This document shows positions 860-20,844 of a stretch of DNA of 24,428 nucleotides, one piece after another; position 1 is the stretch's first letter, and every line of letters starts with the position of its first letter. Below the pieces are notes generated by a model. That model searched no databases. It saw only the letters and a list, made by a program, of their open reading frames with translations, and was not told the origin of the DNA. A program made the translations under genes and the position numbers. This DNA comes from a virus (taxonomy: Duplodnaviria > Heunggongvirae > Uroviricota > Caudoviricetes), in IMG/VR virus record IMGVR_UViG_2734482543_000012; one strand, written 5' to 3'.

Positions 860-1090
860 TTATCATTTTGCGGGTCCTTTCCGGCGATCCGACAGGTTAC
901 GGGGCGGAAGGCGCGCGGGTTTTCGCTATTTATGACAATTTTCCGGTTTAAGGCGTTTCCGTTCTTCTTCGCCGTAACCTAATGTTTTTATTTAAAACAC
1001 CCCCTGAAAAGAAAGGAAACGACAGGTGCTGAAAACGGGCTTTTTGGCCTCTGTCGTTTCCTTTCTCTGTTTTTGTCCGTGGAATGAACA
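860..1090. other. cos: cos DNA-packaging site (cosQ-cosN-cosB region). Putative 12-nt cohesive-end sequence at 902-913 (GGGCGGAAGGCG), with the cosB/Nu1-binding region extending to the nu1 start.
   Basis: The sequence ...GGGTCCTTTCCGGCGATCCGACAGGTTACG|GGGCGG......CGCGGGTTTTCGCTATTTATGACAATTTTCCGGTTTAAGGCGTTTCCGTTCTTCTTCG... matches the lambda right-end/left-end junction as I recall it, and sits directly upstream of nu1 as in lambda. The central overhang differs from canonical lambda GGGCGGCGACCT (see findings). Confidence 0.7.
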
Positions 1091-1610
1091 ATGGAAGTCA
1101 ACAAAAAGCAGCTGGCTGACATTTTCGGTGCGAGTATCCGTACCATTCAGAACTGGCAGGAACAGGGAATGCCCGTTCTGCGAGGCGGTGGCAAGGGTAA
1201 TGAGGTGCTTTATGACTCTGCCGCCGTTATAAGATGGTATGCCGAAAGGGATGCTGAAATTGAGAACGAAAAGCTGCGCCGGGAAGTTGAAGAACTGCGG
1301 CAGGCCAGCGAGACAGATCTCCAGCCAGGGACTATTGAGTACGAACGCCATCGACTTACGCGTGCGCAGGCCGACGCACAGGAGCTGAAAAATGCCAGAG
1401 ACTCCGCTGAAGTGGTGGAAACCGCATTCTGTACTTTCGTGCTGTCGCGGATCGCAGGTGAAATTGCCAGTATTCTCGACGGGATCCCCCTGTCGGTGCA
1501 GCGGCGTTTTCCGGAACTGGAAAACCGACATGTTGATTTCCTGAAACGGGATATCATCAAAGCCATGAACAAAGCAGCCGCGCTGGATGAACTGATACCG
1601 GGGTTGCTGA

Positions 1611-1636
<26 letters not shown>
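1091..1636 (+). CDS. nu1: Terminase small subunit Nu1 (181 aa)
   Basis: Translation MEVNKKQLADIFGASIRTIQNWQEQGMPVLRGGGKGNEV... is near-identical to lambda gpNu1 as recalled. N-terminal winged-HTH. Position immediately downstream of cos. Confidence 0.97.
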
Positions 1637-5317
<3,681 letters not shown>

Positions 5318-11449: not shown

Positions 11450-14040
11450 ACCGGTAGGCGATCTGGTCGTTGATTTGAGTCTGGATGCGGCCAGATTTGA
11501 CGAGCAGATGGCCAGAGTCAGGCGTCATTTTTCCGGTACGGAAAGTGATGCGAAAAAAACAGCGGCAGTCGTTGAACAGTCGCTGAGCCGACAGGCGCTG
11601 GCTGCACAGAAAGCGGGGATTTCCGTCGGGCAGTATAAAGCCGCCATGCGTATGCTGCCTGCACAGTTCACCGACGTGGCCACGCAGCTTGCAGGGGGGC
11701 AGAATCCCTGGCTGATCCTGCTGCAACAGGGTGGTCAGGTTAAGGACTCCTTCGGCGGGATGATCCCCATGTTCAGGGGGCTTGCCGGCGCGATCACCCT
11801 GCCGATGGTGGGGGCCACCTCGCTGGCGGTGGCGACCGGTGCGCTGGCGTATGCCTGGTATCAGGGCAACTCAACCCTGTCCGATTTCAACAAAACGCTG
11901 GTCCTTTCCGGTAATCAGGCGGGACTGACGGCAGATCGTATGCTGGTCCTGTCCAGAGCCGGGCAGGCGGCAGGGCTGACGTTTAACCAGACCAGCGAGT
12001 CACTCAGCGCACTGGTTAAGGCGGGGGTAAGCGGTGAGGCTCAGATTGCGTCCATCAGCCAGAGTGTGGCGCGTTTCTCCTATGCATCCGGCGTGGAGGT
12101 GGACAAGGTCGCTGAAGCCTTCGGGAAGCTGACCACAGACCCGACGTCGGGGCTGACGGCGATGGCACGCCAGTTCCATAACGTGACGGCGGAGCAGATT
12201 GCGTATGTTGCTCAGTTGCAGCGTTCCGGCGATGAAGCCGGGGCATTGCAGGCGGCGAACGAGGCCGCAACGAAAGGGTTTGATGACCAGACCCGCCGCC
12301 TGAAAGAGAACATGGGCACGCTGGAGACCTGGGCAGACAGGACTGCACGTGCATTCAAATCCATGTGGGATGCGGTGCTGGATATTGGTCGTCCTGATAC
12401 CGCGCAGGAGATGCTGATTAAGGCAGAGGCTGCGTTTAAGAAAGCAGACGACATCTGGAATCTGCGCAAGGATGATTATTTCGTTAACGATGAAGCACGG
12501 GCGCGTTACTGGGATGATCGTGAAAAAAAACGCCTGGAGCGGGATGCAGCCCAAAAGAGGGTAGATCAACAGCGTCAACAGGACAAAAATGCGCAGCAGC
12601 AGAGCGATACCGAAGCGTCACGGCTGAAATATACCGAAGAGGCGCAGAAGGCTTACGAACGGCTGCAGACGCCGCTGGAGAAATATACCGCCCGTCAGGA
12701 AGAACTGAACAAGGCACTGAAAGACGGAAAAATCCTGCAGGCAGATTACAACACGCTGATGGCGGCGGCGAAAAAGGATTATGAAGCGACGCTGAAAAAG
12801 CCGAAACAGTCCGGCGTGAAGGTGTATGCGGGCGATCGTCAGGAAGACAGTGCTCATGCGGCCCTGCTGACGCTTCAGGCAGAACTCCGGACGCTGGAGA
12901 AGCATGCCGGAGCGAATGAGAAAATCAGCCAGCAGCGCCGGGATTTGTGGAAGGCAGAAAGTCAGTTCGCGGTACTGGAGGAGGCGGCACAACGTCGCCA
13001 GCTGTCCGCACAGGAGAAATCCCTGCTGGCGCATAAAGACGAGACGCTGGAGTACAAACGCCAGCTGGCTGCACTTGGTGACAAGGTTACGTATCAGGAG
13101 CACCTGAATGCGCTGGCGCAGCAGGCGGATAAATTCGCACAGCAGCAACGGGCAAAACGGGCAGCCATTGATGCGAAAAACCGGGGGCTGACTGACCGGC
13201 AGGCAGCGCGGGAAGCCACGGAACAGCGCCTGAAGGAACAGTATGGCGATAATCCTCTGGCGCTGAATAACGTCATGTCAGAGCAGAAAAAGACCTGGGC
13301 GGCTGAAGACCAGCTTCGCGGGAGCTGGATGGCAGGCCTGAAGTCCGGCTGGAGTGAGTGGGAAGAGAGCGCCACGGACAGTATGTCACAGGTTAAAAGT
13401 GCAGCCACGCAGACCTNNNNNNNNNNNNNNNNNNNNNNNNNNNNNNNNNNNNNNNNNNNNNNNNNNNNNNNNNNNNNNNNNNNNNNNNNNNNNNNNNNNN
13501 NNNNNNNNNNNNNNNNNNNNNNNNNNNNNNNNNNNNNNNNNNNNNNNNNNNNNNNNNNNNNNNNNNNNNNNNNNNNNNNNNNNNNNNNNNNNNNNNNNNN
13601 NNNNNNNNNNNNNNNNNNNNNNNNNNNNNNNNNNNNNNNNNNNNNNNNNNNNNNNNNNNNNNNNNNNNNNNNNNNNNNNNNNNNNNNNNNNNNNNNNNAC
13701 CGGCGGCAAATATGAGCCAGCGGGGATTGTTCACCGTGGTGAATTTGTCTTCACGAAGGAGGCAACCAGCCGGATTGGCGTGGGGAATCTCTACCGGCTG
13801 ATGCGCGGCTATGCGGAAGGTGGTTATGTGGGCGGTGCCGGAAGTCCGGCGCAGATGCGGCGGGCTGAAGGCATTAATTTTAATCAGAACAATCACGTGG
13901 TGATTCAGAACGACGGTACGAATGGTCTGCCAGGTCCACAGATGATGAAGGCCGTGTATGACATGGCCCGCAAGGGTGCCCGTGATGAAATTCAGACACA
14001 GATGCGTGATGGTGGCCTGTTCTCCGGAGGTGGACGATGA
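11442..14040 (+). CDS. H: Tail tape-measure protein gpH, interrupted by an N-run (13417-13698). The two halves are in different frames because the gap length is arbitrary.
   Basis: N-terminal part MAEPVGDLVVDLSLDAARFDEQMARVRRHFSGTESDAKK... and C-terminal part ...GGKYEPAGIVHRGEFVFTKEATSRIGVGNLYRLMRGYA...QTQMRDGGLFSGGGR both match lambda gpH. The stop overlaps the M start as in lambda. Confidence 0.9.
13417..13698. other. Assembly gap / masked sequence (282 N) inside the tape-measure gene
   Basis: Continuous run of n characters. By comparison with lambda H length, roughly 245 nt of real sequence would be expected here, so the gap size is not exact. Confidence 0.95.
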
Positions 14041-20010: not shown

Positions 20011-20819
20011 ATGCGTAAAGTTTGTGCAGCCATTTTGTCCGCAGCCATTTGCCTGGCCGTATCCGGTGCGCCTGCATGGGCGTCTGAACATCAGTCCACG
20101 CTGAGCGCGGGGTATCTTCATGCCCGGACCAACGTTCCCGGCAGTGATGATCTGAACGGGATTAACGTGAAATACCGTTATGAGTTTACGGATACGCTGG
20201 GGCTGGTGACGTCATTCAGCTATGCAGGAGACAAGAATCGCCAGCTGACCCGTTACAGCGATACCCGCTGGCATGAAGATTCCGTGCGTAACCGCTGGTT
20301 CAGCGTGATGGCGGGGCCGTCTGTGCGCGTGAATGAATGGTTCAGCGCGTATGCGATGGCGGGTGTGGCTTACAGCCGTGTGTCGACTTTTTCCGGGGAT
20401 TATATCCGCGTAACTGACAATAAGGGGAAAACGCACGATGTGCTGACCGGAAGTGATGACGGTCGCCACAGCAACACGTCTCTGNNNNNNNNNNNNNNNN
20501 NNNNNNNNNNNNNNNNNNNNNNNNNNNNNNNNNNNNNNNNNNNNNNNNNNNNNNNNNNNNNNNNNNNNNNNNNNNNNNNNNNNNNNNNNNNNNNNNNNNN
20601 NNNNNNNNNNNNNNNNNNNNNNNNNNNNNNNNNNNNNNNNNNNNNNNNNNNNNNNNNNNNNNNNNNNNNNNNNNNNNNNNNNNNNNNNNNNNNNNNNNNN
20701 NNNNNNNNNNNNNNNNNNNCCCGACCGAATCCGTGGCCATTGATATTGCTTATGAAGGCTCCGGCAGTGGCGACTGGCGCACTGACGGTTTCATCGTGGG
20801 TGTCGGTTATAAGTTCTGA
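20011..20819 (+). CDS. lom: Outer-membrane beta-barrel protein of the Lom/Ail/PagC/OmpX family (lysogen-expressed moron), interrupted by an N-run. The N-terminal part diverges from lambda Lom; the C-terminal 32 aa are lambda-like.
   Basis: N-terminal signal peptide (MRKVCAAILSAAICLAVSGAPAWA), alternating-hydrophobic beta-strand segments (GINVKYRYEFTDTLGLVTSFSYAG, WFSAYAMAGVAYSRV), and C-terminal ...VAIDIAYEGSGSGDWRTDGFIVGVGYKF ending in aromatic F, as in lambda Lom. Position between J and stf as in lambda. The frame differs across the gap (gap artefact). Confidence 0.85.
20485..20719. other. Assembly gap / masked sequence (235 N) inside lom
   Basis: Continuous run of n characters. Alignment of the flanking Lom segments to lambda Lom suggests only about 10 codons are missing, so the run length is not informative, or extra sequence is hidden. 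Confidence 0.95.
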
Positions 20820-20844
20820 TTAGCCAGGTAACACAGTGTTATGA

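Follow-up and report, generated by a model that had tools for sequence, protein, structure and literature searches.

GGGCGGAAGGCG, a natural and very probably working cosN allele in a lambda-type cos site

The stretch of viral DNA analyzed here, 24,428 nucleotides of a caudoviricete genome (IMG/VR record IMGVR_UViG_2734482543_000012; hereafter the window), contains a lambda-type cos site with the cohesive-end sequence GGGCGGAAGGCG in place of that of lambda. We propose that GGGCGGAAGGCG is a natural cosN allele and that it very probably works. The basis for this proposal is the sequence itself, the recurrence of the same 12-mer in other genomes, the lack of co-variation in the terminase and the conservation of the other cos subsites. 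From the literature come the mechanism that anchors nicking and the finding that base changes in the right half are tolerated; both would apply to the window by analogy.

The variant overhang

A first-pass annotation of the window had noticed, within positions 895–920, a 12-nt overhang differing from the canonical one of lambda. Alignment with a lambda-derived DE3 record, in which the 'cos site' is annotated, placed the overhang at 902–913, where the window has GGGCGGAAGGCG and lambda has GGGCGGCGACCT; the canonical sequence given in the annotation is right. In the window the local context is ...CGACAGGTTACG/GGGCGGAAGGCG/CGCGGGTTTTCGC... and the longer context is ...GGGTCCTTTCCGGCGATCCGACAGGTTACG/GGGCGGAAGGCG/CGCGGGTTTTCGCTATTTATGACAATTTTCCGG... 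(slashes delimit the overhang). All differences from lambda within the overhang fall in bp 7–12, where AAGGCG replaces CGACCT: positions 7, 8, 9, 10 and 12 (window 908–911 and 913) are mismatched and C11 is unchanged. Both nick-flanking dinucleotides are present (CG at 900–901 and at 914–915). The coordinates of the cos elements and of the neighboring genes are given in Table 1.

The flanks are lambda-like. An alignment of 350 bases round cos shows 22 differences between the window and lambda, and five of these sit within the six-base block. With a background rate of 4.9% the probability of finding at least five differences in six bases works out at 1.7e-6 for a single block and at about 6e-4 once all blocks are taken into account. 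Because the probability is this low even over all blocks, the clustering of five differences in 6 nt, as described in the annotation, is real.

By direct reading the rotational symmetry of the 16-bp cosN amounts to 8 positions in the window and to 10 in lambda, the pairs 3/10 and 6/7 having been lost and the pair 4/9 gained. The twofold symmetry of cosN is a descriptive feature and not a required one; as to sequence, the right half is functionally dispensable (PMC4669245).

Table 1. Positions of the cos elements and adjacent genes in the window
Feature	Position	Strand	Basis or remark
DUF1398 protein, 141 aa	4–426	−	E = 3e-43; upstream of cos
DUF3950 / YlcI-YnfO-like protein, 77 aa	472–702	−	E = 2e-20; upstream of cos
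cosQ heptamer GGGTCCT (packaging termination signal), 24–30 bases upstream of the top-strand nick	872–878	+	lambda-identical in alignment
cosN, 12-bp cohesive-end sequence plus the CG beside each nick (CG/GGGCGGAAGGCG/CG)	900–915	+	read directly; lambda alignment
Left half of overhang, GGGCGG, same as lambda	902–907	+	lambda alignment
Right half of overhang, variant block AAGGCG	908–913	+	lambda alignment
cosB (R3, IHF site I1, R2, R1), TerS binding region	950–1068 (approximate bounds)	+	placed via lambda alignment
Nu1 (TerS), 181 aa, 98.3% identity to lambda, 3 differences	1091–1636	+	protein comparison
gpA (TerL, cosN-nicking nuclease), 641 aa, 99.4% identity to lambda	1611–3536	+	protein comparison

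The other elements of the cos site

The differences from lambda that come closest to cosQ, which acts as the packaging termination signal (PMC4669245; PMC9026076), are at −32 and −17, both outside the heptamer. R3 (CGTTTCCGTT, at 954–963), in which bp 55–63 of lambda are the contact for TerS (PMC9026076), is the same as in lambda, and so are the repeats R2 and R1. From cosQ through cosN to R3 the alignment with lambda contains no insertion or deletion, so that the lambda spacing is kept; that R3, I1, R2 and R1 should follow cosN at a critical distance was taken from PMC9026076. Downstream of cosN the window and lambda differ at +35, +71, +73, +78, +97, +102, +134 and +137. The variant site shows no change in cosQ, in the left half GGGCGG, in the CG pairs beside the nicks, in the spacing or in the R3 core.

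The first of these downstream differences, A to C at window position 936 (lambda bp 35; ATGAAAAT to ATGACAAT), affects the spacer that separates cosN from R3 and that is invariant apart from this change. Locus L077 and the L139/L177 lineage share it, whereas most of the remaining variant loci lack it.

Published tolerance of the right half and the proposed nicking of the variant

In 2015 Feiss et al. reported that differences in bp 7–12 are common among lambda-like phages (PMC4669245). TerL of lambda nicks right-half mutants efficiently, and many of these mutants have a minimal phenotype; C11G is without phenotype, but G2C, its symmetric counterpart in the left half, carries a cost of about 10-fold (PMC4669245). 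Right-half variants are cut normally by lambda terminase, and the reason given is that TerS at cosB anchors the bottom-strand nick (PMC4669245). Selection acts on the highly conserved flanking CG pairs, on the left half and on cosQ, not on bp 7–12 (PMC4669245). Lambda carrying the cosN of N15 yields 132 pfu per cell, compared with 120 for the wild type (PMC4669245). We read the overhang of N15 as GGGCGGCGTCCG, with G at position 12 as in the window allele; since N15 has this G, G at position 12 has already been tested with the lambda terminase. In the literature we found no tests in lambda of the five changes together or of the particular bases that the window has at positions 7, 8 and 10, and a search with the 12-mer, its complement and longer strings yielded no paper naming this 12-mer.

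In the window Nu1 would bind to cosB and would so position gpA for nicking. As in lambda, the nicks made by gpA would fall between bp 12 and bp 13 on the bottom strand and immediately 5' of bp 1 on the top strand, and the products would be 12-base 5' overhangs, GGGCGGAAGGCG at the left end and the complement CGCCTTCCGCCC at the right end. The contact of Nu1 with R3 would anchor nicking in the right half and would make it insensitive to the identity of the bases, so that a change in the terminase would not be needed. This exact 12-mer is thus presumably cut at the canonical positions. Counted against the reading as a working allele were the drop in symmetry, a rare substitution in gpA (L404R, see below), the result that none of the phage records searched starts at GGGCGGAAGGCG, and the fact that the window covers 24.4 kb of a 25-kb contig and includes two runs of N.

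As to the history of the allele, six unconstrained sites amid strongly constrained neighbors may have become saturated between anciently diverged lambda-like lineages, and mosaic recombination may then have spread one version onto lambda-type backgrounds. Saturation and mosaic recombination together would give five clustered differences in near-identical flanks without damage or selection.

Occurrence of the allele in other genomes

The same 12-mer is found in 78 IMG/VR stretches (complete count) that come from many isolate genomes and several metagenomes. A second genome with the 12-mer (L177) is 99.8% identical to the window across 11.6 kb. The 12-mer is also present in the closed E. coli chromosomes of APEC E14033 (L003), SBF22 and CFSAN018748 (the latter two L221 and L222), on the 46-kb protelomerase plasmid pEC21Z151-46K (L220) and, among deposited phage genomes, in PhiR46_1 (PV340565; L001) and YDC107_1 (CP025712; L002). 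At least 86 complete E. coli genome records match a 70-mer of the window round cosN at ≥95% identity, of which five were read and one of the five had AAGGCT instead of AAGGCG; a canonical site cannot reach 95% over the 70-mer because it has at least five mismatches. These many independent genomes, an isolated phage among them, carry the allele with the same lambda-type terminase and thus support the tolerated natural variant that the first-pass annotation had listed as one of three explanations.

A scan of genome contigs with a 21-mer gave one true match, in Escherichia sp. E1V33. Eight other matches to the 21-mer were rejected as chance; they are from unrelated, mostly high-G+C lineages, and seven of the eight are without lambda-like flanks.

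The allele is found before more than one type of cosB. At 18 loci (L007, L046, L100 and 15 others in IMG/VR), which are about 90% identical to the cos of phage 21, the variant overhang precedes a phage-21-like cosB and the small terminase begins MKVNKKKLAEIF; at four loci (L069, L130, L174 and L182) it precedes a third, unrelated type of cosB and small terminase. The phage-21-like cosB is also found with the canonical allele. The presence of AAGGCG on several cosB types indicates that the allele has moved among packaging-specificity groups by recombination.

Right-half alleles and a possible role in cohesive-end compatibility

Pattern scans of IMG/VR in which the flanks were fixed and the right half (bp 7–12) was left open revealed 12 right-half alleles: the canonical CGACCT (at least 113 sites), AAGGCG of the window (78 sites, complete count), AGACCT (7), CAGGCG (4), CAGACG (3), GAGCGT (3), TGACCT (2) and CGACCG, CTGACG, AAGCGT, AAGGCT and CAACCT (1 each). 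Among the sites listed in the open scan the variant accounts for 7 of 120. AAGGCG is the commonest non-canonical allele and the second overall; with five differences it is tied as the most divergent from lambda, and two of its one-step neighbors, CAGGCG and AAGGCT, are present. In all alleles the G+C content stays at 9–11 of 12, and the predicted stability of the duplex is similar. Judged from this spectrum, the right half of cosN is a hypervariable island.

At 331–342 of L223 (chromosome of E. coli O111:H8 SF4-1) the overhang reads GGGCGGAAGGCT, followed by CGCGGA instead of CGCGGG. This allele is one step from that of the window and keeps the T of lambda at position 12.

That two alleles dominate and the other ten are present in at most seven copies each could mean that the dimorphism is kept as a cohesive-end compatibility type, an explanation that would add to that of a working natural allele and would not replace it. 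When a chromosome is packaged, its left end is derived from one cos site and its right end from the next; the ends of a single-crossover hybrid would therefore mismatch at 5 of 12 positions, and such hybrids would be poorly infectious and probably could not cyclise. A mismatch of only two bases at the ends already lowers the yield about 4-fold (PMC4669245), and the narrow range of G+C content in all alleles would also fit. If true, the two common alleles would form a partial hybrid-incompatibility barrier among lambda-like phages, maintained as a balanced dimorphism.

The terminase genes, however, point in another direction. They were compared in the fetched loci that have a lambda-type cosB and intact ORFs of 181 aa and 641 aa, 33 with AAGGCG and 29 with CGACCT. 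Over the coding sequence of Nu1 and gpA the r2 between allele and site reaches its maximum of about 0.4 in the first 0.5 kb and has a mean of 0.02–0.05 past 1 kb; in the non-coding flank strong yet imperfect linkage to the allele is seen only at +71 and +97. Two gpA and four Nu1 protein sequences are identical across both alleles. From the fast decay of linkage and the shared terminases it follows that the two classes frequently exchange genes and that a barrier, if there is one, has little strength at the level of populations. Moreover, neutral drift at six unconstrained sites plus mosaic recombination explains the pattern without selection. We therefore regard maintenance of the dimorphism as a compatibility type as rather unlikely.

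An isolated phage with the allele and the constraint on the adjoining terminases

PhiR46_1 has the exact overhang GGGCGGAAGGCG and a lambda-type cosB, and its gpA is 3 aa from that of lambda. Its whole genome (L205) is that of an N15-like linear plasmid prophage with telL/telR ends, ParAB and lambda-type late genes; the host according to the GenBank record is ECOR13. The PhiR phages are reportedly described by Brenes and Laub in 2025. PhiR46.1 is an isolated temperate phage (phage table in PMC13190303). Since PhiR46.1 can be isolated and is propagated, it must package its DNA.

This finding bears on the suggestion, also made in the first-pass annotation, that the variant is a crippled nicking site which a lambda-type terminase cuts poorly, leaving a packaging-defective, cryptic prophage. 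The suggestion had its reasons: the nuclease site has five changes in only 12 bp, the nick in the bottom strand lies right beside position 12, and the number of symmetric positions decreases from 10 to 8 of 16. Yet, besides its presence in PhiR46.1, the allele is spread over at least three cosB/TerS backgrounds, which is hard to square with a dead site, and right-half changes including T12G are without measurable effect with lambda terminase (PMC4669245). The terminases that adjoin the variant are full length, and their ratio of synonymous to non-synonymous changes is as at canonical sites: the polymorphic codons of gpA number 124 synonymous-only versus 35 amino-acid-changing on the variant side, and 119 versus 27 on the canonical side. 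Given these tallies the terminase is under the same purifying selection beside both alleles. A crippled, packaging-defective site thus finds no support and is very unlikely.

The approximately 46-kb N15-like linear phage-plasmids with the allele (PhiR46_1, pEC21Z151-46K and YDC107_1) have a protelomerase, telL/telR, ParAB, a CyRepA1 primase and a lambda-type head-tail module. Several further 46-kb 'plasmid' records are among the best E. coli matches.

Among the phage records searched only PhiR46_1 and YDC107_1 have the allele, and both were deposited in prophage orientation. Queries with the lambda-type, the 21-type and the third-type cosB gave no deposited phage genome that begins at the variant overhang.

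Terminase identity and co-variation

The genes for Nu1 and gpA adjoin cos and start about 190 bp downstream, as in lambda-type sites. The two proteins had been called almost identical to those of lambda, which was borne out by differences at only 3 of 181 and 4 of 641 residues, respectively. The changes in gpA are T151S, D185E, L404R and T466I; at the codon level there are 22 synonymous and 4 non-synonymous differences between window and lambda.

A substitution that compensates for the altered overhang would be expected if the two alleles marked a switch in specificity, with AAGGCG and CGACCT terminases each preferring their own cosN. In the full-length terminases, 33 of them linked to the variant and 29 to the canonical allele, no residue of Nu1 or gpA was found that tracks the allele. 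The strongest association is that of gpA residues 9 and 21 (p = 3e-4), which could be taken as a weak sign of such a switch, but both residues are polymorphic among the variant-linked proteins, and at both the gpA of the window is in the 'canonical' state. The identical gpA and Nu1 proteins beside both alleles likewise speak against it, the decay of r2 past 1 kb is what plain linkage predicts, and the terminases of lambda and N15 are without cosN specificity (PMC4669245). A switch in specificity with compensating changes in gpA is therefore extremely unlikely.

The substitution L404R (window 2820–2822) is found in 3 of the 33 gpA sequences linked to the variant and in none of the 29 linked to the canonical allele, and it has no general tie to the cosN allele. 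Residue 404 is presumably close to residues implicated in the nuclease center.

The window and its surroundings

The first 13.4 kb of the window are 100% identical to the IMG/VR contig UViG_2667527914_000011 (L139). The window contains two runs of N, at 13417–13698 (282 bases) and at 20485–20719 (235 bases), which mark it as part of a draft assembly. Such a draft contig might give rise to a local error of assembly or consensus, the third explanation in the first-pass annotation. This explanation is refuted by the presence of the same 12-mer in independent sequences, namely the 78 IMG/VR stretches, several closed E. coli genomes and two phage genomes.

The first run of N interrupts gene H, which codes for the tape measure, and the second lies within ORF 20011–20823 downstream of J. 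A frameshift in gene H as a sign of prophage decay was considered and rejected; it is the 282-base run of N that splits the ORF (757 aa + 228 aa). Downstream of cos there are full-length lambda-like head and tail genes, and the best matches among phages are 96% identical to the window and span 96% of it. Where the window has the genes for the DUF1398 and DUF3950 proteins, lambda has other genes; this region is highly mosaic among the phages bearing the variant.

Significance

With respect to mechanism the import of the allele is small; it fits the published cosB-anchored nicking that leaves bp 7–12 free to vary. In practice, annotation pipelines and predictors of cos ends that look for the exact lambda 12-mer miss such sites; in IMG/VR this concerns at least 78 contigs, and among complete E. 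coli genomes at least 86 records. For cosmids, in vitro packaging tools and assays based on the ligation of ends, lambda-compatible ends should not be assumed for phages of this kind. The two-allele distribution also provides a cheap natural system in which to test how far a lambda-like phage tolerates mismatched cohesive ends.

Comparison with known cos sites

The type of variation seen in the window and its mechanistic basis have already been published, and the window allele obeys every rule of the right-half-variant class: it occurs in the isolated phage PhiR46.1, and the same gpA and Nu1 proteins are found with both alleles. With the canonical cos site of lambda the variant shares the cosQ heptamer, GGGCGG, the CG pairs, the spacing, the order R3/I1/R2/R1 and the terminase. 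It differs from it in the right half, which is CGACCT in lambda and AAGGCG in the window, and in the symmetry of cosN (10/16 versus 8/16).

The natural variants described previously are those of N15 (changes at positions 9 and 12), phiD326 (9 and 12) and Gifsy-1 (8, 9 and 11) (PMC4669245). As in these phages, the changes in the window are restricted to bp 7–12, the left half and the CG pairs are kept, and a change of terminase is not needed. Whereas N15, phiD326 and Gifsy-1 differ from lambda at two or three positions, the window does so at five, and its variant overhang precedes a cosB and a terminase of the lambda type, not of the N15 or Gifsy type.

PhiR46_1, YDC107_1 and pEC21Z151-46K share with the window the 12-base overhang, the lambda-type cosB, Nu1 and gpA. 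Unlike the window they are plasmid prophages with protelomerase and ParAB, and they differ from it at −10, −5 and +35; the window, unlike these phage-plasmids, has the DUF1398 and DUF3950 (YlcI-like) genes upstream of cos. The relative in APEC E14033 (L003) is an integrated lambdoid prophage, in which a YlcI-like gene is also located upstream of cos.
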